A DNA stretch of 64,000 nucleotides from IMG/VR virus record IMGVR_UViG_3300033048_000096; one strand, 5' to 3'. This document shows positions 27,369-63,343 of this stretch, piece after piece. This DNA comes from a virus. Made by a program: the position numbers and the translations under genes. Under the pieces are notes generated by a model. The model did no database searches. It saw only the letters and a list, made by a program, of their open reading frames with translations, and had not been told where the DNA came from. The first letter of the stretch is position 1, and each line of letters starts with the position of its first letter.

Positions 27369-27381
27369 CAAAAATTTAAGC

Positions 27382-31712: not shown

Positions 31713-31970
31713 CTACTCCTTACAACTCGAATCATACTTGACTCGCTCATTCTCCTCTCTTATTATTCGCTTTATATACTTATCCGCAGACTCTAATTCC
31801 GGGTAATAAAGAGCCACATAGTCTAATATATTCTTCTTCATAATTCCCTGCATACCGCCGCGACAACTATATGCACTTAATAAGTTGCTTAACTTATTCT
31901 TAACCAACTTATTCTCAACCAACTTATTCTTAACCAACTTGCTTACCTCACTCACTAATACCTCCATCAT
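31713..31970 (-). CDS. Hypothetical protein with 15-bp tandem repeats
   Basis: (KLVKN/KLVEN) repeats encoded by AACTTATTCTYAACC x3 at 31891-31935. Confidence 0.55.
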   Translation of the reverse strand: MMEVLVSEVSKLVKNKLVENKLVKNKLSNLLSAYSCRGGMQGIMKKNILDYVALYYPELESADKYIKRIIREENERVKYDSSCKE

Positions 31971-33276
31971 TACTCATCTTTTTAACCATCTTCTTTATGT
32001 GATCCAAAATAAACTCCGGCGTATGGACGTGCTTTACGAAATTACAAGTTCCACAACATGGTACCACATTGTCTTCCGTATAGCCACCGTCAGAATCTAT
32101 CCTGTCAAAACGGGACATGTCAAGCTCAACGCCGCAGTAATGACACTCCGCATTCCAATTAGAAATAACAAACTCCTTCGTTAACCCAAAATATATGCCG
32201 CGACGATCAGCGCCACGCCTCAATGATGTAAAACGCTCCCCAGGGGCCACACCATATCTCTTGCCGTTACGACTCCTCGCTCTCTTTAAAGGCTTCTGCT
32301 TACTACCTTTTTTATAACCAAAATTATTGCACTCATGATCGGAATTGTTGCCAAACTCCATGATCTTGTTTTTATCCATCTGCTTAATCATCTTTCTTAA
32401 ATGTGCTAAAAGAAACTCGGGCGTGTGAGTAAGCTTCACATAATTACAGTTCTTACAACAGGGAACCACGTTGGCCTCCGTATATCCCTTGTCCGAATCT
32501 ACCCGATCAAAACGAGCTATGTCAAGCTTCACTCCGCAGTAATTACAATCCGCATTCCAATTGGCAATCATAAACTCCTTCGTTAACTCAAAATATATAC
32601 CGCGAGACTTGGCACCGGACCTTAATGAAACAAAACGACCATTGTGAGTTAGGCTATGCTCCTTATGCCTTTTTAATATCCTCTTCCTGTTCTTTTTGTA
32701 ATGCTCCTTTCCTATGTTCGGATTCGCTTCCTTATATTTAGCCGAACTTATGCGGGCAGCCGCTTTAGCGTGATCGCTCTTCATATATTCAACATTATAT
32801 TTTGTGTGGCAATCCTTACAAGAGGTGCTAAAGCCGTCATCTCTTGTACTATCTTTTGAGAATTTATGAATAGACCTTTCCTCTTTGCACTTAGAACATT
32901 TTTTGCTCGTCTTTATGACCCCACTCGCATGATAAGCTGCTGCATTTTGCTTTCTCTTATTTGTGCGGCAACTCCTGCAGGTCCCTTCTCGACCATCTCT
33001 AGTCATGCCAGACTTATTAAAGCTAGAAAGGTGAAATGTTTCCTTACAGGCATTACAGGCTTTATATGCTTTTATAACGTACTTCGGTTTAGGATTTAAA
33101 GCATTTTTGGCATCTCTCTTTATCTTCCTAGCTATACTATAGCATGGCTTACATTTATTACTGTATCCATCTCTAGTAGCCTTGTTTACAGTGTAACTGT
33201 CGTATCCTAATAATTCTCCGCAGTCATTGCATTGTTTCTTTTTATCTTCACTCATTTCGCTATTCCTTAATCTCAC
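31948..33276 (-). CDS. Homing endonuclease: 3 zinc-finger repeats plus two tandem HNH-like domains
   Basis: Three KxCxxC...F......DG....CxxC units; two copies of C.YCG......FDR.DSD.GYTE.NVVPCC..CN.VK. Confidence 0.85.
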   Translation of the reverse strand: MRLRNSEMSEDKKKQCNDCGELLGYDSYTVNKATRDGYSNKCKPCYSIARKIKRDAKNALNPKPKYVIKAYKACNACKETFHLSSFNKSGMTRDGREGTCRSCRTNKRKQNAAAYHASGVIKTSKKCSKCKEERSIHKFSKDSTRDDGFSTSCKDCHTKYNVEYMKSDHAKAAARISSAKYKEANPNIGKEHYKKNRKRILKRHKEHSLTHNGRFVSLRSGAKSRGIYFELTKEFMIANWNADCNYCGVKLDIARFDRVDSDKGYTEANVVPCCKNCNYVKLTHTPEFLLAHLRKMIKQMDKNKIMEFGNNSDHECNNFGYKKGSKQKPLKRARSRNGKRYGVAPGERFTSLRRGADRRGIYFGLTKEFVISNWNAECHYCGVELDMSRFDRIDSDGGYTEDNVVPCCGTCNFVKHVHTPEFILDHIKKMVKKMSNDGGISE

Positions 33277-33891
33277 TCATCTTTTTAACCATATCACTTC
33301 TGTCTTTTTAATATTCTTCTGTAATGCTCTTTTCCCGCGCCCGAACCTCCGTATTGTTATGTTTACGCGATCATACTATTTGACGTAATTATTCCTAATA
33401 TGCCCTGATTGATATTTTGCATGGCAATCCTTACAGGAGGTGTTGAAGCCGTCACCTCTTGTACTATCTTTTGAGAATTTATGAATAGACCTTTCCTCTT
33501 TGCACTTAGAACATTTTTTACTTGTTTTTATAATTTCCTTCGCATGATAAGCTGCTGCATTTTGCTTCCGCCTATTTATTCGGCAACTCCTGCAGGAACC
33601 CTCCCTACCGTCTCTAGTTAGCTTAGACCTATCAAAGTTAGAAAGGTGAAATGTTTCCTTGCAAGCCTTGCAGGCTTTATATGCTTTTATAACGTACTTC
33701 GGTTTAGGATTTAAAGCATTTTTGGCATCTCTCTTTATCTTCCTAGCTCTGCTATAGCATACCTTACATTTATTACTGTATCCGTCTCTAGTAGCCTTGT
33801 TCACGCTGTAACTGTCGTATCCCAATAATTCTCCGCAGTCATTGCATTGTTTCTTTTTATCTTCACTCATTTCGCTATTCCTTAATCTCAC
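33275..33891 (-). pseudogene. Truncated, decayed tandem duplicate of the 31948..33276 HNH gene
   Basis: The first ~160 aa are nearly identical. A frameshifted remnant KEHYRRILKRQK follows, then 18 nt identical to the intact gene's 3' end (33275-33292 = 31972-31989). Both HNH domains are deleted. Confidence 0.8.
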
Positions 33892-34155: not shown

Positions 34156-35178
34156 TTAGTCGGTTACGTAACCGCTAGCAACGCCTCTGGGGTTAACTAT
34201 GCCGATTCCCAATATCTCAGATACCACCCATCCTAGCTTCAGCTGCTTGGGTTCATCAGCGGGAAGAACTTCAATATCTTGCCTTATGGGCATAACTCCT
34301 ACGAATTCTGGATCCGCGGTAGCAAAGACTTGTTTAGGCGGCACGATTTTGGAGACGATAATATCTGCCCCAAAGAGGTGTCCATAGAGTCCAGTTTGAA
34401 GTAGTTCACGTTGGGTCACAGGATCGACCTGAGAGGCACCAGCGGCACCAGCGGATTCCCAGTTAAGCATATCAGTAAATTCACGAATATTCATGAAGTA
34501 CTTAGCAGTAACATTATCCCAGCCATCGATTTCGCGCTTAAGTCTGAGTAATCCTTGCTTAGACAGTTCGGAAGTTACGATACCATTATCAAGAGTTTGC
34601 AGGCTATTTTCACCACCACGAGCGGCATCAGAAGCGAAATCTAGAGCAGCGAAGACATTGGAGTCTTCTTGCGCTTGAATTTCCTGACGAGCTTTCTGTT
34701 GAGCACGATCGATTACATTGAATCTACGTCTCTTAACTTCAGCGATACGCACAGTAGGATTAGAAACGATTTCGAATTCGGGAACAGAAACTCTATCACC
34801 GAACACGCGTGATTCGGGTACAGAGCCGTTGCTAGAAATAACAACAGCGCTGACATCGATATCACGATCATATATAGCGAGAGCGCCTTGCGGGAGCGGA
34901 TCAACTACGAGAGCTTTACGTCCGACACCTTGATAATCGAGGTTTCTTCGGATTGGGTTAGCCATAGCTTGTCCTAATGCAATTTTCCCTTCCATGGTAG
35001 AAAGAGCTTGATGAATCATCTCGTCTCTTTGTGACTCATTGAATGAGGGTGATTGAGTTAGGCTAGAACTGGATGGGCTAAGTTCATCGATAATTGAGGC
35101 GTACTTAACAATTTTGCTTAGAGCATCCTTGACATTACCTGCACTTAGTTCACCTTGTGTATTAAATATATTAGACAT
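34156..35178 (-). CDS. Major capsid protein (HK97 fold)
   Basis: 340 aa; MANPIRRNLDYQGVGRKALVVDPLPQG, PEFEIVSNP, EIQAQED, G.LFGADIIVS..VP, GW..SE..GIGIVNPRGV; AGGAG RBS; strong terminator. Confidence 0.9.
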   Translation of the reverse strand: MSNIFNTQGELSAGNVKDALSKIVKYASIIDELSPSSSSLTQSPSFNESQRDEMIHQALSTMEGKIALGQAMANPIRRNLDYQGVGRKALVVDPLPQGALAIYDRDIDVSAVVISSNGSVPESRVFGDRVSVPEFEIVSNPTVRIAEVKRRRFNVIDRAQQKARQEIQAQEDSNVFAALDFASDAARGGENSLQTLDNGIVTSELSKQGLLRLKREIDGWDNVTAKYFMNIREFTDMLNWESAGAAGASQVDPVTQRELLQTGLYGHLFGADIIVSKIVPPKQVFATADPEFVGVMPIRQDIEVLPADEPKQLKLGWVVSEILGIGIVNPRGVASGYVTD

Positions 35179-40424: not shown

Positions 40425-43400
40425 TTAATCCCACATCGAGGCTAGAGTCTTATGGTTAATGCCATCTCTATTCGTTGAGTTTTGTCCAGGCTCATCAGTT
40501 ACTCCAATATTAAGGCCGGTAACATCAGAGGCAATCTTTACTGACGTATGGCCAGTAAAGGATGCGACACTTCTCTTGAATGACTCAAAGGCTTTATCAT
40601 CAAAGTCCATCATATTATCGACTTGACGATTAAGTGCGGGTCGCGTACCTGCAAGCATACCTTTTCGTTGCATTTCCATAGCGACGTCATAAGCTCTACG
40701 AAGTCTTATCTTGTAAGCATCTCTTTCGTCTTCGGCCTTTTTGTAGAGGAAACTCTTATTTAGCTTTGACTGAACAGAACTTAGTTGATCAGCCGCGTCA
40801 CTTTCTTTGTCATGAAGGCTCTCTTCGTGCTTATCAACCTCTTCTTCGGCAACCTCCTCAACTTCCTCTCTCTCCTTAGCGCTAAGATCATCTTCTGCGG
40901 AATTTTGAAGTCTTCCATCATCAGCGGCATGCTGTTGAACGGATGTTACTGATTTTTCTGCGACTTGACGTGACGGAGTGCTTGGATAGCTGTCGTACTG
41001 GTTAGCGTCTTGGTTACCATGGGAAGGTGCTGGCTTATGCTCACCACCGGTCGGGTTTTTATTGGCTATATCTTCGGCCATATCAGTGGTTACTCCGGAT
41101 ACTTGAGCATTCTCCTTCATTCCGATGCCGTCATGAGCCTCATTCTCCCGAGCCTCATCACCCTCAACCTCTTTATCGTCAGCATACGCTTCGGAAGCCT
41201 CATCACCATTCTCAAGATCCATACCGTTAGCTCTAAGTCTAGCTTGAGCTTTCTTTAATAGTTCTTGACGACGCTGCTTTCTCAGCTTCATTGCGCTAGC
41301 GATTAACTCACTCTCTCCTGAAACCGGAGCTTTAGCGGGAGTCACAATTGCTGCCGATTCCGTATACTCGGATACCTTAACCATGGATGTCGAAATAGTG
41401 TTGGCCATGCTGACTAACGCTTTTGATTGACCTACGATCGTAGAGAAGTCACGAAGCGCTGCTCCAGAAAGACCCTTAAGATCGCGCCTCTGAGTAGAGG
41501 AAAGCTTTCCGTATCTTTCGTAGGTTTCGGCTATTAGCGCTAACTCATCCGCGGAATCTTTCGCTTCAGCCAGAACAATCTTTAGCTGACCAAAAATCGT
41601 GCTAGAAAGCTTCATACTTTCTTCTGGCATATCCGGCATATCAACACCTTCGCCAACATTAATGGTAACATCACCGTCGGAATCTCCAAGATCACCAAGT
41701 GCACTTCGGATTTGCTCGATCGTATCTTCCATCGCGAGTAATGAATCTTCAATTTCCGACTTGGGAGTGCCTTCGCTCTCAAGCTCTTCGCCTTCCACCG
41801 GAAGCTCTTCACCCATATCTAAGGGGGCCTCTTCCATTGGGGCGGGAGGAAGCTCTGCACCCAACTCCGCACCAGGCATTTCGGCGCCTAGGTCCTGAGC
41901 AGTTCTTGTTAGATTGTATCCAACAAATCCTATTCCATCTTCTCGGATAGCAGCAACTACTGCTTTCGCGTAGTCAGTGCTTTTTAAGAATTCCCAATTA
42001 GCCTCAAGATTTTTACCGAAAATGTTTTTAGCAGTAGTTGCAATAACTAACTTGCCACCAGAGTAAACTTCGAAGCCAGAAGCAGCCTTATTTATGCTTC
42101 CATCTAGAGCGCGCTTTTGCTTAAACTTGGTAGAAAGCGAGGGACCTTTATACTTAGATCTTTTTTGAAGTTGCTTTATAGCGTCATCTCCAGGAAACAT
42201 GCCCTTGTCACCGCCCATATTTCCGGTCTGCAGCATATGCTTGTCAGAATCCCAGTACTTATGATAATCTTCTGAGGTGAACGTAGAAGGCTCAACGGAA
42301 GGGGCCGCTCCACCGAAGTAGTAAGCTCGCTTTTCAGTAGCGACATTCTTATCTTCAGCTCTAAGTTGCTTCTCTTTTATCTCTTTATCACCGGGAACCA
42401 TCCCGTCGGGACCGCCAAGGTTAGTTGGGTTTGCATGCATTTGTTTATCATCCTGTTCGCGAATTTTCTTTTGTAAAGCACCCTCATCCTTGTAGGTACT
42501 CGGTTCTGATGCTGGAGCCGCTCCTCCCTGAGGATAGGCTAGACGGCGACGAAGCGCAGCCCTTTTACGTAATCTTGACTCATTCATAATGTCCTCCGTT
42601 ATGGAACTTAATTTAATTTTATCATTTATCTTCTCTTGTGAAAAAGCATAATTTTCAGGCCCTACACCGTCTCCCTTAAATGAATCAGGATTTGGCTCAC
42701 TAACACCTGCGACCAGACCGGAAGACCCGGTGCCAGTATAATCACTAACGTCACCATCATCTTTCATAGTAATGGTATCACCACCAGAAGCGTTTTCGCC
42801 ACTAGTAAATACTTCGCCGAGTGGATCCGAAAGATCATCACCAGCAATTAACTCGTCGCTAAAGAAGCTTCTGAATAACTCAGGAGCTTGCTCCATAGTC
42901 TTGCCGGTAGCTGAAGCGAAATCTGCCATAGCTTTAGCAAGTTCATTTCTGTCTTGAGCATTCTTTTTACTGGCAGATTTTGTGAATCCACCGGTAGACA
43001 AATATCCCTTAACAATTCTCTCTCTCTGCTCTAAAGAGCAGCTTCCCGCACTACAAACAGAATTAAGCAATAAATCTAAGTTATTAACCTCTTTGGCACT
43101 AAGCTTTTTGAGATCCAAATCTACTCCGTAAGAACTCAACTCTTCTTTGTGCTTATTAATCGAAGCGAAGCATCTCAACAAGATCGAGCCAGGTTCTGCC
43201 GGATGAACTACTAGGCTATATTCAATTGGACTCAGACCTACGTTAATCTCTCCCCAAGCTTGTCTCGTCATTATATGACTACAATATTCTTTAGGAGTAG
43301 TTGCCGGCTTTCCACATTCAGTACAAATTGATGTAGCTACCGCAGTTCCCATCGAACCATAGCGAACTACGCCAGTAGATACTTTTCTTGCTAAATCCGG

Positions 43401-43916
43401 ATAATTAACTTTATCCAAAGCGCAAAGCCCAACGACTTGCTTTAACCTCTCATCATAATGAGTGTCTAGAATTATTCCCCTTACACCATCTACAGTATCA
43501 GACTTGTGATCAACACATAGGGGTCTTCCAATCCAATCCCTTGCGGCCTTCTTTAACTCAGACTCAGGAAAAATATCTCCATTATTATTTTTATGAGCTT
43601 TTACGTTGCCGTGCCACTTCCACTTTTCATCAAAATATCCCCAAGCATTATCTTTACCAACTTTCTTTAGATTTCCCTCTCCGTCGATTAACGAAGACTC
43701 TGCAGCCTTTAGAAAGATAATGCTGAAGTATAGAAAGTCGTCAGATTTCGGAGCAATAGTCTTTATTGTTTGTGCAAACTTATTTAATCTATTTAATATA
43801 TCTTCGCTAGCTAATTTGGTGTCAAACTCTGATGGACTTATTTCGCTTACCACGCTCATCTCTGTATGTCCAAATTTAACAATTTGCTTACTAATCATAC
43901 TTGCCCTCGATTTCAA
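40425..43916 (-). CDS. Prohead maturation protease fused to scaffold-like region
   Basis: N.NGDIFPESEL...WIGRPLCVDH...RGIILD...GSMG...CTECG...CSH...EIN.GL..IEYSLV.HPAEP (His...Ser protease with Zn insertion), followed by about 850 aa of acidic and coiled-coil sequence. Confidence 0.75.
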   Translation of the reverse strand: MKSRASMISKQIVKFGHTEMSVVSEISPSEFDTKLASEDILNRLNKFAQTIKTIAPKSDDFLYFSIIFLKAAESSLIDGEGNLKKVGKDNAWGYFDEKWKWHGNVKAHKNNNGDIFPESELKKAARDWIGRPLCVDHKSDTVDGVRGIILDTHYDERLKQVVGLCALDKVNYPDLARKVSTGVVRYGSMGTAVATSICTECGKPATTPKEYCSHIMTRQAWGEINVGLSPIEYSLVVHPAEPGSILLRCFASINKHKEELSSYGVDLDLKKLSAKEVNNLDLLLNSVCSAGSCSLEQRERIVKGYLSTGGFTKSASKKNAQDRNELAKAMADFASATGKTMEQAPELFRSFFSDELIAGDDLSDPLGEVFTSGENASGGDTITMKDDGDVSDYTGTGSSGLVAGVSEPNPDSFKGDGVGPENYAFSQEKINDKIKLSSITEDIMNESRLRKRAALRRRLAYPQGGAAPASEPSTYKDEGALQKKIREQDDKQMHANPTNLGGPDGMVPGDKEIKEKQLRAEDKNVATEKRAYYFGGAAPSVEPSTFTSEDYHKYWDSDKHMLQTGNMGGDKGMFPGDDAIKQLQKRSKYKGPSLSTKFKQKRALDGSINKAASGFEVYSGGKLVIATTAKNIFGKNLEANWEFLKSTDYAKAVVAAIREDGIGFVGYNLTRTAQDLGAEMPGAELGAELPPAPMEEAPLDMGEELPVEGEELESEGTPKSEIEDSLLAMEDTIEQIRSALGDLGDSDGDVTINVGEGVDMPDMPEESMKLSSTIFGQLKIVLAEAKDSADELALIAETYERYGKLSSTQRRDLKGLSGAALRDFSTIVGQSKALVSMANTISTSMVKVSEYTESAAIVTPAKAPVSGESELIASAMKLRKQRRQELLKKAQARLRANGMDLENGDEASEAYADDKEVEGDEARENEAHDGIGMKENAQVSGVTTDMAEDIANKNPTGGEHKPAPSHGNQDANQYDSYPSTPSRQVAEKSVTSVQQHAADDGRLQNSAEDDLSAKEREEVEEVAEEEVDKHEESLHDKESDAADQLSSVQSKLNKSFLYKKAEDERDAYKIRLRRAYDVAMEMQRKGMLAGTRPALNRQVDNMMDFDDKAFESFKRSVASFTGHTSVKIASDVTGLNIGVTDEPGQNSTNRDGINHKTLASMWD

Positions 43917-43960: not shown

Positions 43961-45808
43961 TTAATCAGATAATATAAGTAATCCTAAAATATCTGAATTT
44001 ATATATTCCATGCCCCGATCTATCGAAGAGTGTAAGTCTTCAATAACTCTCTCGTACTCATCAACCTTTTCTGACAAGACCTTATGAAAGTCGCCTGACT
44101 CAATTTCATCAATAAGATCGAATATAGCTTCTATTGAATCCGAAGCTGTTTTGGCCGAATTAGCTAGCCCATCTATAATCTCTGATGTTGTTGAGATATC
44201 TTTAATTTCATTAAATATCTTTATGGCGTCACGTATCTTAATTAAATAATTTCTAACTATCCTCGTGTTACTCCTGACAGACTGGTTGTACTGACCCTTA
44301 CTTCTTGTTACCGCGCCCGAATCGGCTTTTATCTTATCATATTCCACTAGATTCTTTTTCATATTATCCAGGGATGTATCAGACAATTCTTTGGCCGCAT
44401 CTAATAACTTATATACTCTTTTCGCGCGGCTTTTTACAGAGTCCGGGACCGGAGTGCCTGCTCTTTTAAGAAGGCTCTTGTCACTAAATACTTTTATATC
44501 TACATTTCCGCACGCAATCTTTATGGCACCAACAACATCATAAGCGTCAGAATCTTTTGAAACTTTAATTACTTCCATATTAATCGGCTCCCCAAACTGA
44601 AGACTTAGTCTGGCGCAAACCATTGACTTTAGATATTCGGGATTAGGTGATCTTGTTACCACGATCACTCTTGAGTTAGATTTCGAGGCAGCTTTTCTGA
44701 CCTCATTAAATATCTTTGTTGCGTTGTTAATTATTTTTTTATCATTAAGGAAATATGAAAAACTCTTATTCAGGCTAGCTAGTATGGATTCATTACTTTC
44801 TATACCATTTGACATTATCTCATATAGATGAACATCTCTGTATATTTCATTGCCGTCCGATGTCTTATCTATAGATACGGCATGGCCATCTATTCTTATG
44901 AATGGAATATCTTCATCAGAACATTCTGAAGTCTTATATACTCTAACAGTAGGCGAATCCTCTATCATTCCGTCAAAATCAAATGCATATACACTTCTGT
45001 TATCAGAGTGTGTGAACTTACTTACCAGATCCGATATTAAGTGATCCTCGCTAGCTACTTTTTCAAACTTGTCATTTACCGACAATATGGGGTATCCCTT
45101 CCAGTTATGAAACCCCGGCCTAAAAGTATTTGAATACTGAACAATTATATCCCTCCTGATACCAAGTTTGCTTGATATTTTATTAAGAGCACTTACACTA
45201 GATAATTCAGAATCTTTTCCATGTGATATATCAACACTATGTCCGACGCTTATTCCTAGCCTATCAGAAAGGCCTCCAGCGATCTCTAATACATTTTTAA
45301 CATTAGCACAGCCAAATGTTCCTAAAGTTCCAGGCTTTATATCTTTATATATTTTTTTAATCTTATCGTCACCATCGATGAACACTATATCTATAGGGAA
45401 AGATACCGTCCCCATATGGTAAATGACGTCTTCAGGATTGTTATAAGGGAAAATTAACCCGGCCGTATCGGCTAACCCAGAATAAGGCTGGAGGCCCGAT
45501 ACCTTGTCTTTAAATGTATTAGCTATGTTGCATGCGAAGTTTGCCAATATACCTTCGTCATCCGACACCTCCACACTTGCTTTCTCGCTACCATTATCGT
45601 CAGCCAGAGAAACATCTTCGACGGGACTTATCATTCCGTTTTCGTACGTCACTGAACTGGCCTGATCATCTAATACAGACTTGTCAGGAACTAAACCGTC
45701 TGACGGTTGATGACTCTCTTCTATTCTGTCTTTGTAGCTTCCATCAGGAGAGCCTGAGCCCATCTCATGCTCAGTGCTACCGATCCACGGCCATGCGATT
45801 TTTTTCAT
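43961..45808 (-). CDS. DUF192 domain plus HAD-like domain plus coiled-coil protein
   Basis: GL..YSGL....GLIF......YHMGTVSFPIDIVFID...VLEI.GG....GI.VG; then YAFDFDGMI...VIVVTRS. Confidence 0.65.
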   Translation of the reverse strand: MKKIAWPWIGSTEHEMGSGSPDGSYKDRIEESHQPSDGLVPDKSVLDDQASSVTYENGMISPVEDVSLADDNGSEKASVEVSDDEGILANFACNIANTFKDKVSGLQPYSGLADTAGLIFPYNNPEDVIYHMGTVSFPIDIVFIDGDDKIKKIYKDIKPGTLGTFGCANVKNVLEIAGGLSDRLGISVGHSVDISHGKDSELSSVSALNKISSKLGIRRDIIVQYSNTFRPGFHNWKGYPILSVNDKFEKVASEDHLISDLVSKFTHSDNRSVYAFDFDGMIEDSPTVRVYKTSECSDEDIPFIRIDGHAVSIDKTSDGNEIYRDVHLYEIMSNGIESNESILASLNKSFSYFLNDKKIINNATKIFNEVRKAASKSNSRVIVVTRSPNPEYLKSMVCARLSLQFGEPINMEVIKVSKDSDAYDVVGAIKIACGNVDIKVFSDKSLLKRAGTPVPDSVKSRAKRVYKLLDAAKELSDTSLDNMKKNLVEYDKIKADSGAVTRSKGQYNQSVRSNTRIVRNYLIKIRDAIKIFNEIKDISTTSEIIDGLANSAKTASDSIEAIFDLIDEIESGDFHKVLSEKVDEYERVIEDLHSSIDRGMEYINSDILGLLILSD

Positions 45809-45809
45809 A

Positions 45810-46097
45810 TTATAACCCCTTATTAAGCTCGTCAATAACCGTTTTTATAAAATAAGGATCTCGACCATTTAAAATATTCTTAACCAAACTTATACTGGTC
45901 CCTATATAAGAGCCTCCGGGCTGATTCTTTGAGGACATATCGGGTATGTTTAATTCGAGAAATTTTCTTTTCAAATTAGGATAAGCACTTTGCTGAGAGT
46001 CAATCGACATTCTACCAATCATAACATCTATTATGTCACGTATTTGATTTGCTACAAATTTAGGATCATGTGGAAATCCACGAGCTTCTTTTTTCAT
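45810..46097 (-). CDS. Hypothetical head-module protein
   Basis: 95-aa ORF in a tightly packed operon. Confidence 0.55.
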   Translation of the reverse strand: MKKEARGFPHDPKFVANQIRDIIDVMIGRMSIDSQQSAYPNLKRKFLELNIPDMSSKNQPGGSYIGTSISLVKNILNGRDPYFIKTVIDELNKGL

Positions 46098-46894: not shown

Positions 46895-48673
46895 TTAACC
46901 GGGTGGTCCGCCTTCCGGTAGTTCAGGAGGCATGTCACCGCCTAAGTCGCCCCCTCCTAAGCCTCCTGGACCTCCTGGGTCCATAGGCGGACCACTACCG
47001 CCTGACATTCCTGGAAGCTCTAAGCCCATGTCATCTCCGGATTCACTATCCATACCCGGTAATCCCCCTGAACCACTGTCAGGTGGTTCAGGTATTATTC
47101 CGTCAGCATCTAGATTCTCCAACTCTCTTAATCTCATTGATTGAAGTGACTCCAATTCCTTAGTTCTAATTACCTCATCAATAGCTTCTTCTCGTAGTCT
47201 ACGCTTTTCTTCTTCGTAACTCAAGTCTAAGCTTCTATATAACGTCTGCAATGAAACTTGCTTATTGGATACGAAATTACTTACTCCCTGAACGTAATCA
47301 TTCATGTCATATAAATTCATGTGATTGAAGTCAATCGTCGGAACTAATAATACTTTTTGACCATCTTTAAATTCGAAGAAATCTTGCATTTCGCATATTG
47401 GTGCAAATATTTTTTGCTCTAACCACTTCTTTATCATATTTCTAAATATATCATACCTCTGCCTGAGAACCTCTAAACCTATTGACGAACTGGCGTACGA
47501 AGCAGATTCCTGATCCATTAAGGCTTTTGGAACCATCAAGCCTGTGTAAAGATTGTTCATGATTAACTCTATATCAGAAGATATATCAAGCACACCTCCC
47601 GAATAACCAACCCTCTCTATGGTGACTCCATCATGAGTAACGATCTTGAAATCCTTGTCATACTGCGACTCTTCCAAAACGCTTCTCATTTCTTCTATGT
47701 CAGATTGAGTCGGCCTATAATCATTTCCGTTTCCTAATTTAACTAAAGTAAGGGGATTGATCATGCTGTCAGCTTGGGCAAACTTAGACTCTCTAAGCTT
47801 ATCATAAAGCATTAAATCTTTATATATAGATACAATTACAGAAGTTCCTCTAACGTCATACGGAGAACTCAATAATTTCAAGTGTGATACATTTATGTTA
47901 TCCAAAGGTATTGACTGACCTTTCTTTACGGCATCAATTATATGCCTGGGTAATCTTCTCTTAAGCTTTAGATCTGAAGGTGAATTAGAATTAACCAACC
48001 TACCTAGAGCGGCATCTGGCTTTAATGATATTATAGTCTGGTCACCTATTGCCGCTTTCTTAACATGAACAAAGTCTGGATTAAGAATTGTTATTCGTTT
48101 CCAGGAACCAGTTTCTTTATCTAACTCTGCGTAAGGAAACACCTCACCCATTTTCCAGAACTCCAACGAAGCTCCGTAAACGACTGAATACAGATCAAGC
48201 TCTTCTGCCATCTGAAGGAAATATTCTTGAACTTCTTTTACGGGATGACTTATATTTATTTTGCTTATCGGGAATGATGCATGCAAGTTTATAGCATTTC
48301 TTACGATCGGATGTGTATCGTAAAATATTCTGTTCCACGCATTCATCGTGACACGGTCTCTTGGGAGGTTTAAATTCGCTAACTGGAATAATGGAGAATA
48401 TACTTCCGGACCCATCATATCAGATAAACCCTTCGTTGTAGGTAACGTTGAAGCTCCGCCCATAGCTCTCTTCGTCATCAAACCCCTATAAGCCGAACTA
48501 TGAGATACAACCGAATGTCTGCTGCCACCAACTCGCTCTTCATCATTAACCCTTTCCGTTTCCGCATCTTGAATTTGGGCTCTTCTTAATCCTGATAACT
48601 TCTTGAAACCATCTTTGGATAACGAATCGCTAATATTACTGATGATTTTACTCTCTTTTCTTCTGTTTTTCAC
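46895..48673 (-). CDS. Portal protein
   Basis: Directly after TerL; PIVRNAINLH..FP, GEVFPY, ILNPDFV, H.K.....YDVRGTS.I; Gly/Pro/acidic C-terminal tail. Confidence 0.85.
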   Translation of the reverse strand: MKNRRKESKIISNISDSLSKDGFKKLSGLRRAQIQDAETERVNDEERVGGSRHSVVSHSSAYRGLMTKRAMGGASTLPTTKGLSDMMGPEVYSPLFQLANLNLPRDRVTMNAWNRIFYDTHPIVRNAINLHASFPISKINISHPVKEVQEYFLQMAEELDLYSVVYGASLEFWKMGEVFPYAELDKETGSWKRITILNPDFVHVKKAAIGDQTIISLKPDAALGRLVNSNSPSDLKLKRRLPRHIIDAVKKGQSIPLDNINVSHLKLLSSPYDVRGTSVIVSIYKDLMLYDKLRESKFAQADSMINPLTLVKLGNGNDYRPTQSDIEEMRSVLEESQYDKDFKIVTHDGVTIERVGYSGGVLDISSDIELIMNNLYTGLMVPKALMDQESASYASSSIGLEVLRQRYDIFRNMIKKWLEQKIFAPICEMQDFFEFKDGQKVLLVPTIDFNHMNLYDMNDYVQGVSNFVSNKQVSLQTLYRSLDLSYEEEKRRLREEAIDEVIRTKELESLQSMRLRELENLDADGIIPEPPDSGSGGLPGMDSESGDDMGLELPGMSGGSGPPMDPGGPGGLGGGDLGGDMPPELPEGGPPG

Positions 48674-48680: not shown

Positions 48681-50462
48681 TCACATTTTAAGTCTAGGTG
48701 CGTAAGCTAATGAAGGCCTTGGCATTGTAGATTTCGTCTTCTTGCCAGGCTTAAGGGTAAACCTTTCTGTTGAGTCAAATTTCCAAGCCATATATGCATA
48801 CATTAAAGCCATTAACCCATCATTAGGTGTCGTGCCCTTAACGTATGTTTTTACTTGTTGACCCCCACCCTTTATGCGAATAGATGTACCCATAGAGGTG
48901 CAGTGATCAATTAACCATTCCACATGCTCATAGCTCTTCCACGGAAATCTTATTTTACCCTTTCTTATTTTATCAAACAATTCCTCAATCATAAGATCTT
49001 TATTGTACGAAACCATTAGCTCATCTTCTCTGTATTTTAAAGGGTTTAGTAAAGCTCCGCTTCCCTGTGCCCCAAGTAACCTATCACCCATTCCGGCCTG
49101 TATATCTCTAACAACATCCTGACCGAAGAAGAAATCTGATACCCCCTGTTTTATACCGAATCTCTTATACATTTCCAAGACTGTTTCTTTTTTATATCCA
49201 AAACTTCTCTCTCTAAGCTTATGTGCGTGCTCAACCAGTAGAGTTCCGTCTCCTGCGTCCGAAAGAATAACGACGCACGAATATGACTGTCCTCGGCCAT
49301 CTTTCTCAACCTTATCCCCCCAGTCAACACCTAAATATGTGTTCTTATCTCGGGAACTTATACGCCGCGAAAAACTCCTGTCAGGATCTTTACAGTACAT
49401 CTCGATTTGAGTTCTTGTTAATGGCATGCCTACACCGGCATAAAACTCGCCAACAACTTCGTTATTCCAAACTCGCTCAGATTGATTTGGATTATTTTCC
49501 GGCATTAGATCATTTATGTATTCCCTATTTAGATTCGGAATATAAAGCTGATTAATATGAAAACCAACATACTTGCAGTCATCTGGATTTCTGGAAGGAA
49601 CCCACTTACCTAGCTCAATGGCATCAACCTTCTTGCTTATAGCCCCACAATGAGGACACCTAAAATCATATCCCTTAATCCATATATCTTTCCAACCATC
49701 ATCCTCGGGTTGATAAAATGGGTACGTACCTTTACACCCTACACATCCTAAATGATAATACCTCTGATCAGACATGTTCCAGGTTGTCTCAAACCAACTT
49801 CCTTTCTCCTTGGGCGTCCCGAAATATACCTGCACACCTTTTCCGTTTTGACCATACTTTGCGGCAGTCAATGTCTTTGTGGTGTTACCTATCCCAATTG
49901 CTGTCATATCCTGACACTCATCAAAGAAGGATATGTCAATCGTCATACCACGCGTCCTATCACCTTCGGCACCTATGCTTTCGATCCATAGGGTTCCTGT
50001 CTTGAACTGTTTCATCGTCAGGTTATCAACGGCGGTTGGCCCCACTAACTTATTCTTATTTATAAAGTCATCCTTTGCGCTTCTTATTAAACCTTCCAAC
50101 TTGTCTTGCGTAAATCTCTTAACCATAGCTAATGCTGGGAACAAATGAGCTACGCGTATCGGGGGGTTGGTAAATAAACCGCTATTAGTGAAGTATAGGT
50201 CTAACGCTCCAGCCATCATTGTGGCGCCCACCTGCCGGCCTTTCTTTATCACAACTGGCTTACCGTTTTTTCTAGAAGCTTGCAGAGCTATATACCTATA
50301 GACATCCGCCATGAATTTCCACCCATTCCCTATAACACTGAAAGGCTCACCATCGAGAGTTAAATTGTTCTCGATAAAATGAGCCGGATCGTAGTCCAAA
50401 AAACTGGTCTTTACTTTGCTAAATAACTTTCTTTCTTCATTCTTTAAATTTTTCTGAGCCAT
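48681..50462 (-). CDS. terL: Terminase large subunit (lambda GpA-like)
   Basis: Walker A-like KKGRQVGAT, Walker B FFDECQD, FGTP, CxxC...CPHC ribbon, GFHINQL, nuclease GVDWG and ND.LMA. Confidence 0.92.
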   Translation of the reverse strand: MAQKNLKNEERKLFSKVKTSFLDYDPAHFIENNLTLDGEPFSVIGNGWKFMADVYRYIALQASRKNGKPVVIKKGRQVGATMMAGALDLYFTNSGLFTNPPIRVAHLFPALAMVKRFTQDKLEGLIRSAKDDFINKNKLVGPTAVDNLTMKQFKTGTLWIESIGAEGDRTRGMTIDISFFDECQDMTAIGIGNTTKTLTAAKYGQNGKGVQVYFGTPKEKGSWFETTWNMSDQRYYHLGCVGCKGTYPFYQPEDDGWKDIWIKGYDFRCPHCGAISKKVDAIELGKWVPSRNPDDCKYVGFHINQLYIPNLNREYINDLMPENNPNQSERVWNNEVVGEFYAGVGMPLTRTQIEMYCKDPDRSFSRRISSRDKNTYLGVDWGDKVEKDGRGQSYSCVVILSDAGDGTLLVEHAHKLRERSFGYKKETVLEMYKRFGIKQGVSDFFFGQDVVRDIQAGMGDRLLGAQGSGALLNPLKYREDELMVSYNKDLMIEELFDKIRKGKIRFPWKSYEHVEWLIDHCTSMGTSIRIKGGGQQVKTYVKGTTPNDGLMALMYAYMAWKFDSTERFTLKPGKKTKSTMPRPSLAYAPRLKM

Positions 50463-52151: not shown

Positions 52152-52424
52152 CTATCCATAAAAACTTGTAAGTAACCCGGTCCATGTTCTGCTTATATTA
52201 TCATCTACGTATTCTGACTCGTTAAACTGCCCTTGTAATGGCTTGGCAGAGTCACCAACATACACCCTGGGGTACAAAGGACTACCACTTAAAGGAATAT
52301 TAACAGAAGATTCTTCGTCATCAATCTCATACTCTTCGGGGTCATATTCGCCCTCCTCTTCGTACGCAATGATTTCGTCATCAAGATAATTTTTAAAATG
52401 TTTTTTGTTCATAATATTATTCAT
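52152..52424 (-). CDS. Hypothetical acidic protein
   Basis: About 90-aa ORF in the operon; start uncertain. Confidence 0.5.
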   Translation of the reverse strand: MNNIMNKKHFKNYLDDEIIAYEEEGEYDPEEYEIDDEESSVNIPLSGSPLYPRVYVGDSAKPLQGQFNESEYVDDNISRTWTGLLTSFYG

Positions 52425-52436
52425 AAATATCAACAG

Positions 52437-54143
52437 CTATTGTTGGTAGCCGCTTAACTTAATTAACCTTTCTTTTCTATTATTAATATTAGCAAGTTTA
52501 TTTTTCCTCCCAAGAATAGATACGTGATAATGAGGACCGGCCATTTTAGTCTCGTCAACAATCTTTATGTTAAAATCATTATCTATACGCATCGCACTTA
52601 ACACCTCTTTTATACCGGAAGTTAACGAAAAATCCAAGGCTTGTCCTGGGTCCGTAATATGATGGCTTCCTACAGTTCTGCTTCTTATAACCTTAGCACC
52701 TAACTCTTGAGCATCTTTTCCTACCCCATAACTCTCAAATATATCTGACATCTTGCTTCCATAACTTTTTCCGTATAGCCCTTCCAGATACTCTCTTCCG
52801 CCATTCATTCCGCCATTATCATTCCAGTTTCTTCCCATCAAGGCGGATTGGTTTCTTATAGATCTCCAACCACTAGTTATTATTGGGGTCTGAACACCCA
52901 TCTCCTTAGCTTTATTACCTATAGCCTCAATGAAATCTTTTACATCTTGGGTTACATTATTAATATTAACCCCGGGTTTAGTATAAACATTTCCTCTGGA
53001 TACAGAAGTGTACCCAGAGGCTCGCTCCGGTACCCTGTTGGAACTTAAATTTCTATCCGGTATAATGAGATTATAAAGCTTATTTCTTCTCTCTCTAAAG
53101 CCTTCCGTTAATGATGGCGGAATTAAAGAACTAACTCCCCAGTTAGAACCGCTTAGCTCATTTTTCATTATACTAAGAGTCTCTTCTGGGCTTTTATGAA
53201 TATTATTCCACTCGTTTTTATATTTATTAGAATACCAAGATGCCCAACTATTATACGACGGACTAGATTGTTCTGAGATATTATTGTAATTAGCCTTCCA
53301 CCACTCTTCTAGTTTTTTATATTCAGGGCCCTGCGATACATACGAGTTCCAATTATTAGCCAAGAAAGCAAACTTGTTATCTAATGCAGGGCTGCCGAGG
53401 TAATCAACCAAAATCTTCTTCTCTATCAATATATCTTTAAAATATCCTGACAAGGGAACGTTCTTAAATAAGCCCAGATCTTTAAGCAATTTGAGCGTTA
53501 GATCTTGATTTGCCTTAAGGGCTTTTCCAATTTTAACAGCTATATACTTGTCTTTTACGTTGCCCGAACTAAATAATGATGGATTGCTGATTGTGAACTC
53601 TTTAATCTCAGGAGCGATATCAAAATCATATCGTGCTGCAAGATTTATCGCGCGGTAAACTCTACGAGGATCATCGGTTAACGTAATTTCCGGAGGAACC
53701 GGGGTACGAATCAATTTACTTCTCATATCCTCAAAGCCTTGGCCAGTGGGATCCGTTATCTCCCCAGAAATTAAATCCTGATGCAAAGCATTTATCGTGA
53801 AGTCTCTACTGAATGCTTCCTCAAAGCCCTCGTTAGCCCCATTTAAATGTTTCACTACCCCGTCAGATACGAAATTGCTTGAAAAGTCTAAATCAAATTC
53901 TTCAGAAAATACTGTAACATGACCGTCGTCAGAAAGCTCGAAAGTAACATTTAATTCTTCGGCCAATAAAATTCCCAGTCTTAAAACCTCAGATGAATTA
54001 GTTGTTAGATCTATATCTGTAGTCTTTACGTTAGGGATATCCATAAATATATCTCTGGGTAACCCACCAACAACAAAAGTCTTGTCAATAAGGTATTTAT
54101 TAGCTATGCTATCAATAAACTTAAGCGTATCTTTTAAACTCAT
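52437..54143 (-). CDS. Class II (CCA/poly(A) polymerase-like) nucleotidyltransferase fused to an M15/Hedgehog-like Zn peptidase
   Basis: VVGG.PRD...DIDLTT, SRDFTINAL, DPTGQG..D......IRTP, DDPRRVYRA; C-terminal ITSGWRS..NQ...SHH...GQALDF...HYHVS. Confidence 0.8.
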   Translation of the reverse strand: MSLKDTLKFIDSIANKYLIDKTFVVGGLPRDIFMDIPNVKTTDIDLTTNSSEVLRLGILLAEELNVTFELSDDGHVTVFSEEFDLDFSSNFVSDGVVKHLNGANEGFEEAFSRDFTINALHQDLISGEITDPTGQGFEDMRSKLIRTPVPPEITLTDDPRRVYRAINLAARYDFDIAPEIKEFTISNPSLFSSGNVKDKYIAVKIGKALKANQDLTLKLLKDLGLFKNVPLSGYFKDILIEKKILVDYLGSPALDNKFAFLANNWNSYVSQGPEYKKLEEWWKANYNNISEQSSPSYNSWASWYSNKYKNEWNNIHKSPEETLSIMKNELSGSNWGVSSLIPPSLTEGFRERRNKLYNLIIPDRNLSSNRVPERASGYTSVSRGNVYTKPGVNINNVTQDVKDFIEAIGNKAKEMGVQTPIITSGWRSIRNQSALMGRNWNDNGGMNGGREYLEGLYGKSYGSKMSDIFESYGVGKDAQELGAKVIRSRTVGSHHITDPGQALDFSLTSGIKEVLSAMRIDNDFNIKIVDETKMAGPHYHVSILGRKNKLANINNRKERLIKLSGYQQ

Positions 54144-55662: not shown

Positions 55663-55912
55663 TTTTCTTCTCAACATTTTTGATAGCATCTATCCAGGAT
55701 TCCAGCTGTCTAATCAACTTTAGCCAAAAAGAATTATCAATATCTTTGGCATTAGACACAGCCCTCTTAATATAAGTAAGAAATATTAACAAGTGCTCAT
55801 CAGGAATCTTCTTATCTTCATATATCTCTGCAATGTTTTCTTTTAGCCACAATCTAAATGATTCTATATTCTTTAAATTGTCTTGTGTTATGAAGTTATA
55901 CCTATTATGCAT
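55652..55912 (-). CDS. Hypothetical protein
   Basis: 86 aa, coupled to neighbours. Confidence 0.55.
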   Translation of the reverse strand: MHNRYNFITQDNLKNIESFRLWLKENIAEIYEDKKIPDEHLLIFLTYIKRAVSNAKDIDNSFWLKLIRQLESWIDAIKNVEKKNEL

Positions 55913-56606
55913 CTATAACTTCCAATCTGTTGTAATTATTATAACTTTCAGAATTATGCTTCGTGTTAATAAGTTTTGAGTTTACCTTCTCAACGAACAT
56001 AGGTATCAACGACGGGTCCAAATCTTGAAGGACCTCGAATACAATGTTCTTTAGAACAGTTACTTGTTCGTTAACGACAGTTATGTTTATGTTGTGATCG
56101 ATGGTCTTATCCGCGACTCCCTCAACATACTTTTTCCAATCCTGAACTAATCCGCGCTGAGTGTTAAGAAGATCAATTAACATCTTATCCTCCTTTAGAC
56201 TGCCATTGTTAGTTTGCAATGTGTTGAAATAAAACTCAATTCTAGTGCTCACAAGCGTAAGCATCTCAAGAATCTTTCTGTTAGCGTCTAACTCGGTAGA
56301 TACAATCTCATCTAACTTCTGCTGATATGCTGATGAATTTGAGATAATTGATCTGGCATTTAAAGCGTCAGAATCGCTATCACTTTCTTTTCTTGCTGTC
56401 TTTAAGTTATCAAGAACCTCTCCATGTACACCTAAATGCTCTTTTCTGAATTTCTGCAATGTGGCGTAAGAAATTTGAAGGCGTCTTTTTCTGGGATGTT
56501 TCCTTTTTAACCAAGCTTCAACTTTTTTCACAGACTCTCCGTTAAGAAGCTTCTTGATAATCTCTTCCCTCTCTGGGTGCCCAAATACTTTGTTCTGCTT
56601 TTCCAT
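55905..56606 (-). CDS. Putative terminase small subunit
   Basis: N-terminal HTH (HPEREEIIKKLLNGESVKKVEAWL...ISYATLQKFRKEH) plus helical oligomerisation-like region; first gene of the transcription unit containing TerL. Confidence 0.45.
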   Translation of the reverse strand: MEKQNKVFGHPEREEIIKKLLNGESVKKVEAWLKRKHPRKRRLQISYATLQKFRKEHLGVHGEVLDNLKTARKESDSDSDALNARSIISNSSAYQQKLDEIVSTELDANRKILEMLTLVSTRIEFYFNTLQTNNGSLKEDKMLIDLLNTQRGLVQDWKKYVEGVADKTIDHNINITVVNEQVTVLKNIVFEVLQDLDPSLIPMFVEKVNSKLINTKHNSESYNNYNRLEVIDA

Positions 56607-59309: not shown

Positions 59310-59744
59310 TTAATCCTGAATTCCATTCTTTACGTTATTGATTTTTATCAATATATGCTGTATATTTCCGTTATTCTTGCAAATCTTTCTTAATTTCTTA
59401 ATAATACCGCCATAACGCTTCTTGTTGTTTTTATAATCTATATTTCCGTGCATTGCCTTATGTACAGCCGATTGGGTTATCCCTAGATGGTCAGCTATCT
59501 CATTTTGAGTCTTCCCCATAAGCCTCATTAATAGTATTTTTTTCTGATGCTCCGTTAAAAACTCGCCGTGGACCACGTCATATAGCTCCTCCATCAAGGT
59601 TTCTCTCAAATCAGCGATCTTCTCGTTCGTTGTAGTCTCCGATAAAATGTGACCGATTCCGCGCTCCATCGGAAAATTACTCAACTTTGCCTGGTCAAAG
59701 GATATCTCCACAATCTTATGCTGGTATAACTTACTCTTGTTCAT
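59310..59744 (-). CDS. HTH transcription regulator (sigma-70 region 4-like)
   Basis: LTEHQKKILLMRLMGKTQNEIADHLGITQSAVHK. Confidence 0.75.
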   Translation of the reverse strand: MNKSKLYQHKIVEISFDQAKLSNFPMERGIGHILSETTTNEKIADLRETLMEELYDVVHGEFLTEHQKKILLMRLMGKTQNEIADHLGITQSAVHKAMHGNIDYKNNKKRYGGIIKKLRKICKNNGNIQHILIKINNVKNGIQD

Positions 59745-61281
59745 AATAATTCCCCTTATTAAACTCTTCTTCTAATATAACTTCAATATTCTTTAGATCA
59801 AAATGAGAAATCCTTAACAAGTTGATTTCAAACTTCTCACAATAATCGTTCTTTATCTTATCTAACTTCTTGATATAACTTAAGCTATCCTCGTTACCGC
59901 CCCAACCAGTTATGTGCTGTAAGCCGTCATACTCAATGCATAAATTATGCTCCTTAACATAAAAATCAAACTTTAACTCACGCTTATTTCTGCAGTCACT
60001 AAACTTCTTCTGAGTCTCAAATGATAAACACCTGCTCTTTAAAAATTTAAAGACGCTTCTCTCTCCAATACTCTGCTTGCAGTCAGCGCAACCGTGACCC
60101 GATAAATGATCTGACGGCCATTGACTAAAATCACCATGATTAACGCAAGTTATGATAACCTTTGCCTTCGATGACGTATAATTCAAATTAGGATACTCAT
60201 ATAGATTCTGATGTATACCTCTGGCTAGTGATATAAACTCCTCATTGCTATATTTTCGGTCATGGCTCTTTGATAGCATTATACTCTCTCCACATTTCTG
60301 ACACCCATGCGTCCTTAAGTGATTTGTCGGTGTTTGCTCAAATATGCCATGCTTCGCGCATGACATCCTATATAGAAAACTCATTCCTCTGTAATTTTCT
60401 TCACTATATATATACTTATCCCCATGAACCTCGTTGGCTTTTTTTATAAACTCATTAAAATCATCCCTATTCTTATTTGCAGCTGAATTAATTCCGCAAA
60501 GCTTGCAACCAAACCCTACGATGTGAGCCTTCGGTGTTTGATAAAACTTTCCATGCTCATTACATATTATACCAACTTTGATCCCAGAATTCTTGTAAAT
60601 AATATCATCATAATTATACAGGCTTCCGTGAACCTTAAAAGCCTTCTCCTTGAATGTCGAAAATAAACCACTCCTCCTCTTTTCTAACTTGCAAGAATTG
60701 CAACCACCACTGCCCTTTAAATGAAGATTATTCTTAATCCATACTCTACCATGATCGTTGCAATAAATCTCAATCTCTTTTCCGAGCTTATAATGATAAT
60801 TATCTCCATGAATCTTTTTAGCATTAATAACGAAGTCTGAAAAATTAAACGATGAACGCAAAGAACGCTCCTTCCTTGAGCAATCTTTGCAACCTTGATC
60901 TCCATACAAATGATTAAAAGGAGCTTGGTAAAATTTACCGTGCTCCTTACATATAATTTTTATTCTTATTTTCGATGTTATATAATCAACCTCACTATAA
61001 TCATACCTACCCGAATATAACCCGTAAGCTTTCTTTAGAAATATTTCAAAGTTTCCGCTTCGCCTTTTCGCGTTCCTAACCTCAGCGCGACATAACTTGC
61101 AACCTCCATATTTACTCAGAAACGTCCCGGGCTTCTGAGAGAAATCTCCATGAGTTAAACAGGTTATTATGACATCCTCCCAAGAACCTAAATATTTCAC
61201 TCGCTCATAAGAATATAATTCCCCATATAACTTAATGGCCTTATCTAAGAAATTATAACTTAAACTACTTTTCATTGCCAA
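59731..61281 (-). CDS. Free-standing homing endonuclease: 6 zinc-binding repeats plus a Vsr/DUF559-like domain
   Basis: Six C..HG.F.Q....H....GC..C repeats; SIGE...LKFDFYV....CIEYDGLQH...DKIKN.YC....I.LLRI. Confidence 0.85.
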   Translation of the reverse strand: MAMKSSLSYNFLDKAIKLYGELYSYERVKYLGSWEDVIITCLTHGDFSQKPGTFLSKYGGCKLCRAEVRNAKRRSGNFEIFLKKAYGLYSGRYDYSEVDYITSKIRIKIICKEHGKFYQAPFNHLYGDQGCKDCSRKERSLRSSFNFSDFVINAKKIHGDNYHYKLGKEIEIYCNDHGRVWIKNNLHLKGSGGCNSCKLEKRRSGLFSTFKEKAFKVHGSLYNYDDIIYKNSGIKVGIICNEHGKFYQTPKAHIVGFGCKLCGINSAANKNRDDFNEFIKKANEVHGDKYIYSEENYRGMSFLYRMSCAKHGIFEQTPTNHLRTHGCQKCGESIMLSKSHDRKYSNEEFISLARGIHQNLYEYPNLNYTSSKAKVIITCVNHGDFSQWPSDHLSGHGCADCKQSIGERSVFKFLKSRCLSFETQKKFSDCRNKRELKFDFYVKEHNLCIEYDGLQHITGWGGNEDSLSYIKKLDKIKNDYCEKFEINLLRISHFDLKNIEVILEEEFNKGNYYEQE

Positions 61282-62417: not shown

Positions 62418-63343
62418 TTAGTAGATTTCAAAGCGTAAACTCGCTCTAATTAATTTTTCTATATTGTTAAACTCAAAGTATGGTATTCTTAGTAGACCAA
62501 TACCGTTATCCTCGCAAAATTTATTCTTAATCTCATCTCTACGCTTCGTGCCAGCTAATGACTTCTCGGGATTTCTCCACCAGCCTCTGTAGTGCTGGAT
62601 CCCATCATACTCGATACATAGATTGTAATCAGGCAAATAAAAATCAAATTTAAGTTTGCTCTTGTTAATGCATCCAGTGAATGTTTTCTGACAGACAAAC
62701 TCTATGTTTTGCCCCTTAAGTACTTCAAGCACTTTCTTCTCACCTCTACTGAGACTGCATTTGGGGCAGCCTGACCCGCTATAGTGATAGGCCGCAATCT
62801 GATGGAATATACCATGCTTCTTGCATATAATAGCGACTTCACTCTTATTCCCTGTGTAGTTGACCTCAGAGTAATCGTAAAGATCGCCGTGAATAGCTTT
62901 TACCTTAATTATAAATTCTTCTGTATTTGATCTTCTTGCCGAAGATATCCTATTTAATCCACACAGCTTACAACCTCGACCACCCAAATGAGACTTTGGA
63001 GATTGTAAAAATTCTCCATGAATTTTGCAAATTATAATTACCCTTAAATCAGAACTAATATAGTCAACCGCTGAGTAATCATAAATGAACTCATGAATAA
63101 TGCCAGCCTTAGCTGCGAAGCAATCCTTGGAGGATGATAACTTTTTAGAGATCGCTTCTAACCCGCACTGATTGCATTTATATCCGCTAAGATGATTATT
63201 CGGCCTCTGCCTATACTCACCATGATCGGGACATATTATAGTGACTTTTTTTTTGATCCCACATAATCAACCTTGGAATAATCATACTTGCTACCATGAA
63301 CCTTTATGGCGCGCTCTATGAAGATTTCTGTGGTAATCCGCAT
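62418..63343 (-). pseudogene. Homing endonuclease (3 zinc-binding repeats plus Vsr-like domain) interrupted by a frameshift in an A9 run
   Basis: ATG at 63343 (MRITTEIFIERAIKVHGSKYDYSKVDYVGSK). The frame breaks at A9 (63254-63246); the -1 frame continues VTIICPDHGEY... into the 62418..62987 ORF. Total 926 nt, one short of a multiple of 3. Confidence 0.8.

Follow-up and report, generated by a model that had tools for sequence, protein, structure and literature searches.

Class II CCA-, CC-, and A-adding enzymes (PDB 4wby, 3h37, 1miv, and 3wfo; PF01743), including the phage CCA enzymes of PHROG 2244, are among the described systems closest to the transferase reported here. A basic/acidic (B/A) motif and a flexible loop are features of class II CCA enzymes; CC-adding enzymes have the loop deleted and five core motifs kept, and loss of the B/A motif or loop is their marker (PMC7014341). 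Escherichia coli poly(A) polymerase (PAP) tolerates changes of the loop and of the template Glu/Asp but needs the template Arg, whereas CCA enzymes do not tolerate such changes (PMC2532741). Phage CCA enzymes are already known, and in jumbo phages they have been counted among the RNA-repair genes (PMC7824862).

Virion-associated wall hydrolases and head cargo cut by a protease are likewise known kinds of phage proteins. In SPN3US, whose processing by the head protease gp245 forms, together with T4 gp21, the basis of the analogy drawn below, the N-terminal pieces cut off mostly leave the head, and 42 head proteins are uncut (PMC10052503). In vivo, the substrates of T4 gp21 include a host protein that is not part of the virion (PMC12991175). 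Particle preparations of phage G contained gp22, an endolysin encoded in the head block, along with many replication enzymes (PMC12484599). Here, we describe a class II nucleotidyltransferase that is fused to a predicted zinc peptidase in a relative of phage G.

Results

The window (i.e., the entire stretch of 64,000 nucleotides that was analyzed) corresponds to the structural block of a jumbo myophage that has not been cultured, with nearly all genes on the minus strand. Together with other uncultured jumbo phages, it forms a clade related to Bacillus phage G; near-complete relatives are 317 to 395 kb in size. The fused ORF is located between g511 and the genes leading to those for the terminase large subunit (TerL) and the portal (Table 1). 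An assembly chimera or sequencing error, named as a possible refutation in the original prediction, can be dismissed with near certainty, since the protein recurred on four contigs, ∼35 homologues aligned with it from end to end at 33 to 68% identity, and pN was far below pS in all three domains, as expected under purifying selection. An AlphaFold model consisted of three confident parts and two low-confidence stretches (aa 252 to 260 and aa 333 to 367).

Table 1. Features of the fused ORF and of its genomic surroundings (positions are those of the window)
Feature	Position	Strand	Remark
Fused ORF, 568 aa	52437..54143	(-)	Recurs on four contigs
Class II nucleotidyltransferase, aa 1-250 (head, neck, and beginning of body)	53394..54143	(-)	Equals stand-alone core gene of relatives
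Catalytic D43-x-D45	54009..54017	(-)	125/125 family members
Third carboxylate D86	53886..53888	(-)	CCA-enzyme B/A motif and flexible loop after D86 replaced
Motif B, S112-R113-D114	53802..53810	(-)	Central Arg invariant (125/125)
Template motif D157-D-P-R-R161	53661..53675	(-)	Last Arg alone fixed family-wide
K257-F-A259, candidate head-protease site in low-confidence linker aa 252-260	53367..53375	(-)	Homologous to N-terminal leader of split peptidases
Trp-rich helical module, aa 262-332	53148..53360	(-)	Always precedes wall-enzyme domain
Variable, disordered linker, aa 333-367	53043..53147	(-)	
Predicted M15/LAS (Hedgehog-fold) zinc peptidase, aa 368-546	52506..53042	(-)	R427, H495, D504, H538, H540
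C-terminal basic helix, aa 549-567	52443..52499	(-)	Starts with K549-L-A551
g93, next gene, conserved neighbour	52152..52433	(-)	Fused to transferase in other lineages
TerL	48681..50462	(-)	
Portal	46895..48673	(-)	Homologous to phage G gp14 (E 4.5e-71)
Head maturation protease/scaffold gene	40425..43916	(-)	Candidate cutter; phrog_18299, E 1e-13; phage G gp19, E 2.6e-29
Major capsid protein (MCP)	34156..35178	(-)	51% identity to phage G gp27
Sheath	7356-10565		

In a survey of 80 loci found using the fused ORF as query, the gene order from g525 to the portal was invariant. A second set, for which TerL was chosen as query against circularity, comprised 95 distinct loci spanning g233 to TerL. 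In all 95 of them the transferase was present at the same position, four genes upstream of TerL and usually alone. The family was not found in any cultured phage, and neither phage G nor Tunturiibacter phage Tunturi_5 had a match, although the MCP, portal, and protease are homologous to those of phage G. In the literature covered, mostly open-access papers, we found no report of the transferase family or of a transferase-peptidase fusion.

Several other genes of the block and its surroundings were noted. g233 (55905-56606) resembled a small terminase subunit by eye (N-terminal helical domain, C-terminal strand), with no family match found. Between portal and protease, a gene rich in K-x-A (43961-45835) combined a DUF192 domain, a HAD-like stretch, and a coiled coil; its counterpart in L134 carried an additional methyltransferase. 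The sole plus-strand gene among the structural genes (30563-31669; phrog_11974) showed a weak PARP/ART match (E 0.02). Genes resembling Cys/His repeat-array endonucleases were inserted in the structural and replication blocks (25326-27383, 31948-33891, 59731-61281, and 62418-62987). TerL (∼950 aa) and portal (930 to 1,290 aa) were much longer in some relatives (L002, L003, L005, and L011), consistent with intein insertions. g93 (52152-52433; L019:10814-11245) is what remains, at the C-terminal end, of a conserved protein of ∼140 aa that has four invariant Cys residues. The lineage with the acquired peptidase cassette has lost the Cys domain, and fusion of this gene to the transferase occurred in several lineages.

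The N-terminal part matched Pfam PolyA_pol (aa 23 to 146, E 8e-12), and in structure comparisons aa 1 to 258 aligned with class II tRNA nucleotidyltransferases and PAP (Z 15.6 to 21.1). The fold predicted for the first half is that of a class II nucleotidyltransferase, with Z 21 to CCA/A-adding enzymes, and a head-neck fold with DxD and third carboxylate places it in the class II (PF01743) superfamily. The head and neck were shared with the class II enzymes over ∼228 residues (Z 17.7 to 21.1), as were GG-x-x-RD, DxD, the third carboxylate, the central Arg of motif B, and the template Arg. A profile search yielded ∼150 proteins at E up to 1e-30, of which 125 near-full-length members were used; the family is divergent, forming at least 125 clusters at 50% identity. 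D43-x-D45, D86, S112-R-D114, and D157-D-P-R-R161 were near-invariant among homologues of the fused ORF. Family-wide, the template Arg was kept in 117/125 near-full-length members, while the template Glu/Asp had drifted to Asn, Ser, Gln, His, Tyr, and others, with Asp kept in about half; the subclade of the fused ORF retained both the template Asp and the Arg.

Alignment with canonical enzymes also revealed clear differences. The R-x-E-x-Y stretch of the B/A motif was replaced by DFSS-N/H-F, and motif E (S-x-E-R-x-x-x-E) by KDKYIAVK. A helix (aa 94 to 100) occupied the position of the flexible loop in the model, the first Arg of motif B was Ser (S-R-D in place of R-R-D), and the tail was missing. 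The original prediction had listed DxD, (S)RD, and DDxxR as retained and R-x-E and motif E as missing, and had doubted that the product is a canonical CCA enzyme; all of this agrees with the alignment. Judged by its sequence, the transferase is not a normal CCA-adding enzyme and is predicted to extend RNA ends. Nor does it have the anatomy of bacterial CC-adding enzymes, since the loop is replaced rather than simply deleted and motif E is lost. All NCBIfam cut-offs were far above its scores and no curated model was reached, including TIGR01942 (PcnB; 48.2 bits versus a cut-off of 305.65).

PcnB enzymes carry a G-R-R-F-type signature before the third carboxylate. At the corresponding place, the transferase has D-D-G-H-V-T-V-F, and the Arg-rich C-terminal domain of PcnB is lacking as well. 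On the other hand, the fold resembles that of PcnB (PDB 3aqk-3aqn; Z 15.8), and with the template Arg fixed, the Glu/Asp drifting, and the loop replaced, the conservation pattern is PAP-like, following the dependence on Arg rather than on Glu/Asp or loop described for the E. coli enzyme (PMC2532741). We consider the chances about even that the transferase works like a PAP, extending RNA 3′ ends by A-rich tails or by single nucleotides, rather than building CCA. The template Asp and Arg present together in the fused subclade are also compatible with C addition.

Three of the four near-complete relatives encoded a second PF01743 enzyme elsewhere, near tRNA genes. Two of these were short and possessed the B/A motif, the loop, and E-D-x-x-R; the third was longer and contained an HD domain. 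Moreover, CCA was encoded in 74/85 tRNA calls of the near-complete relatives. The head-block transferase would thus not be needed for maturation of the phage tRNAs and is unlikely to be an ordinary CCA enzyme. One relative (G002) had 22 tRNAs and no second CCA enzyme, which counts against a PAP-like function. Very short (248 to 250 aa), motif-complete CCA-type enzymes that end right after the neck or start of the body were found at L128:1685-2428 and L129:1690-2439. Two relatives carried tRNA genes with a CUA (amber-reading) anticodon (L115:4560-4637 and L122:5776-5851), and their head genes read normally under table 11.

In a model that follows the original prediction, the fused ORF would be a purpose-built, packaged polyprotein, the transferase of which would repair tRNA 3′ ends (by CC or A addition) against a tRNA-targeting defense. 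The closest sequence matches were indeed tRNA nucleotidyltransferases, with an S. pombe cca1 entry as the best. The intact template Asp and Arg of the subclade, the use of B/A-motif or loop loss as a marker of CC-adding enzymes (PMC7014341), and the RNA-repair role ascribed to CCA enzymes in jumbo phages (PMC7824862) point in the same direction. However, the transferase is a universal, position-fixed core gene (95/95 loci) and not a patchy accessory one, its template Asp is not conserved family-wide, and a canonical CCA enzyme is encoded separately, near tRNA genes, in 3/4 genomes. As it also differs from CCA- and CC-adding enzymes in its motifs, and the tRNAs themselves encode CCA, a counterdefense by tRNA repair fits poorly and appears improbable; PAP-like tailing is the better fit.

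For the C-terminal part, the original prediction had taken S-G-x-R, SxH-x-A-x-D, and HxH as signs of an M15/Hedgehog-type peptidase. S424-G-W-R427, H495, D504, E531, and H538-Y-H540 were invariant in 39 homologues, and R427, H495, D504, H538, and H540 would supply the substrate Arg and the His, Asp, and His zinc ligands. Folded alone, aa 366 to 568 gave a pLDDT of 94, and the best 14 of 48,161 chains compared all had the LAS/Hedgehog fold, at middling Z scores (7.8 to 5.4; best root mean square deviation, 2.5 Å over 96 residues), so that the fold foreseen for this half was recovered too. The best Foldseek matches were VanY-type (E 7e-3). A VanY profile matched at E 3e-4, the score against Pfam VanY was below the cut-off (15.3 versus 25 bits), and Peptidase_M15_3 was above its cut-off in one homologue (P0041). 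Despite the middling Z scores, the VanY profile, the P0041 match, and the invariant residues agree in assigning the predicted peptidase to M15/LAS.

VanY-type D,D-carboxypeptidases end in E-x-x-H. This ending was not found in the peptidase, which ends in H-x-H, in contrast to VanY and Ply500. Fold, S-G-x-R, H..D, and final His are shared with VanY (5hnm), the Streptomyces Zn D,D-peptidase (1lbu), and MepA (1tzp), and the same likeness extends to Ply500 (2vo9), the T5 endolysin (8p3a), and the Hedgehog N-domain. The peptidase differs from these by an inserted helical segment, by two additional residues separating H495 from D504, and by a Trp-rich module in front. Neighbors fused to LysM or PG_binding_1 are in line with a wall enzyme, and in relatives the peptidase was replaced or supplemented by other wall-enzyme-like domains (e.g., a phage tail lysozyme in L014).

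The Trp-rich module (70 aa, between the two enzymes) had been overlooked in the original prediction. No family or fold match was found for it as modeled within the fused ORF. In L014 (10001-12349) it was present twice, before the M15 peptidase and before the phage tail lysozyme, which suggests that it acts as a carrier for wall enzymes. The C-terminal helix was missing in several homologues and in all split forms, whereas P0040 has lost the peptidase but still carries the helix.

Stand-alone transferases (250 to 290 aa) were the usual form and ended where the linker of the fused form begins. The peptidase module was detected in 9 of the 95 TerL-found loci, separate in six and fused in three. 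Separate peptidase genes overlapped the transferase stop and, in L007, L011, L012, L015, and L017, had their own ribosome-binding site. In the transferase tree, split forms were nested among fused ones, with at least three changes forced by well-supported branches (midpoint root, which does not give their direction). The survey of homologues proposed along with the original prediction revealed that C-terminal passengers do vary: besides the peptidase plus phage tail lysozyme (L014), they included a HAD domain (P0038) and PcfJ-like, ART-PolyVal, and g93-like sequences. A distant clade displayed the same fused/split switch with an unrelated passenger. By eye, the passengers of P0042, P0037, and P0038 looked lysozyme-like, SLT-like, and L,D-transpeptidase-like, with no Pfam match to support this. 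The tails of P0139, P0141, P0144, and P0156 contained a recurrent small basic module starting with N-F-D-Y-G directly after K-x-A-Q, either fused or separate, which is a candidate DNA-binding internal peptide. The tail of the distant clade resembled repeats of the protease gene by eye only; this resemblance was not significant and was discarded.

The joint between transferase and passenger carried a conserved motif, which was K-x-A in 30/35 close homologues and K-x-S in the other five; among 42 diverse fusions, 25 had K-x-A at the joint versus 9.5 ± 2.6 expected. K-x-A was also located within the first eight residues of the separate peptidases of L007, L012, and L015. In the distant clade, K-x-A/S/G occurred within the first ten residues of separate passengers, and fused genes kept the motif at the joint. 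Among 400 X-x-Y motifs, K-x-A ranked first in the head-block ORFs (85 versus 45.9 ± 5.6 in shuffles) but was not enriched in tail and replication ORFs (30 versus 38.7). Its top rank recurred in phage G (58 versus 31.4) and Tunturi_5 (40 versus 19.9), the head blocks of which share the enrichment. From the enrichment across the head block (34156-59282), maturation sites would be expected, for instance, at K25-Y-A of the MCP leader. Within the transferase of the fused clade K-x-A was depleted (12 versus 32.8), a weak signal among related sequences.

As in T4 (IPI-III, Alt; gp21, I/L-x-E) and SPN3US/phiKZ cargo (A-x-E), a short motif is enriched in head-block proteins, leaders are short, and the head protease is encoded within the same block. 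The differences are the motif itself (K-x-A/S/G), the phage G gp19-type protease, and the intact enzyme, rather than a disposable propeptide, that is N-terminal to the site. The same mostly open-access literature contained neither a K-x-A rule nor a paper on cleavage sites of this protease family. Given the head-block enrichment and the presence of K-x-A at the joint in 30/35 homologues, a phage-G-type head protease, by analogy, probably cuts after K257-F-A259. Of the cut sites originally proposed to flank the second part, this one was conserved, whereas those near the C terminus were weaker: K549-L-A551 was mostly R-x-A in homologues, R-x-A was not enriched in head proteins (28 versus 21.8, p 0.09), and the helix itself was often missing, leaving these sites weak as conserved cuts.

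Could the protein simply remain uncut? In such a neutral fusion, the M15 domain would be an accessory endolysin released at lysis, with the transferase acting in the cytoplasm while still attached. Both are late genes of one operon, and they fuse and separate often. Many endolysins are M15 peptidases (Ply500, T5, and LysB4 were among the fold matches), and the phage G head block also contains endolysin genes. This would, however, explain neither K-x-A/S at the joint in 35/35 homologues, within an otherwise variable linker, nor K-x-A at the start of split genes, and we regard it as unlikely. Production of the peptidase from an internal in-frame start would also make cleavage unnecessary. A Met shortly before K-x-A was present in 7/35 homologues, but the fused ORF and most sampled homologues had no start codon with ribosome-binding site there, and an in-frame start at the joint was not conserved, which makes this route very improbable.

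Stand-alone transferases had a terminal K-x-A in only 2/77 cases, no leader, and no avoidance of K-x-A, and a capsid-targeting N-terminal leader was absent from fused and stand-alone transferases alike. The site therefore appears to travel with the passenger, and packaging of the transferase we can only infer. Because the site corresponds to the leader of the peptidase gene and predates the fusion, the polyprotein does not appear to be built for delivering the transferase, as had originally been proposed. Conversely, absence of a site does not exclude packaging, since 42 SPN3US head proteins are uncut, and cutting alone does not prove it, since T4 gp21 also cuts a non-virion protein. Detection of gp22 in phage G particles is a weak precedent in view of the many replication enzymes in the same preparations.

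Discussion

Taken together, we lean towards the following explanation, which we hold to be somewhat better than an even guess. Two adjacent late genes would have become one when an overlapping stop/start was lost. One of them is the clade's core gene, putatively a minimal class II ribonucleotidyltransferase; the second, which is optional, would be a wall-hydrolase cassette composed of the Trp-rich module and the M15 zinc peptidase, with its own short K-x-A leader. A cut after K257-F-A259 would restore the same two products that arise by direct synthesis in split relatives. This may be why the fusion comes and goes, and the fusion looks opportunistic rather than purpose-built. By a slight preference, we regard the peptidase as virion cargo that would nick peptidoglycan at entry, rather than as an endolysin. 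The transferase may be carried into the prohead together with the peptidase and then be injected, a step that we consider plausible but rather doubtful. The main hint of a destination shared with leader-bearing genes, and an indirect one, is that the transferase is often fused to them and that such fusions are tolerated. RNA tailing would serve the core program, e.g., RNA turnover or host shut-off.

Alternatively, the transferase might use an acceptor other than RNA (a DNA end or a protein) during head assembly or DNA packaging, with the fusion being incidental. Its location four genes upstream of TerL, unchanged across 95/95 loci, would be in favor of this. Its repeated fusion to the adjoining g93-like gene and the lack of the tRNA-binding motif E and tail would suit such a role. 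Yet position alone does not imply packaging, since GroEL, RecA, primase, and a sigma-like factor are encoded in the same conserved block. Furthermore, the class II head and neck are kept along with the arginines of motifs B and D, and phage G shares the head genes but yielded no transferase homologue. We therefore judge this role to be rather improbable. The PAP-like reading could also be extended to the whole clade: phage-G-like heads would mature at K-x-A, and an essential, virion-delivered PAP-like transferase of an undescribed family would act on host RNA within minutes of the start of infection, being co-packaged here with the entry peptidase as a single precursor. In this full form, it is an unlikely proposal.

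The nucleotidyltransferase-peptidase fusion itself is the lesser part of the finding. Phage tRNA nucleotidyltransferases are usually classed as accessory tRNA-repair genes, whereas here such an enzyme is a fixed core gene of the head block rather than located among tRNA genes. Its fixed position, the coexistence with a true CCA enzyme, and the lost CCA switch suggest that it probably does something else, which is indispensable to these phages. The switching between fused and split forms, in turn, points to a K-x-A maturation rule that is directly testable in the cultured phages G and Tunturi_5. If true, this rule would make the internal head cargo of the lineage readable from sequence.
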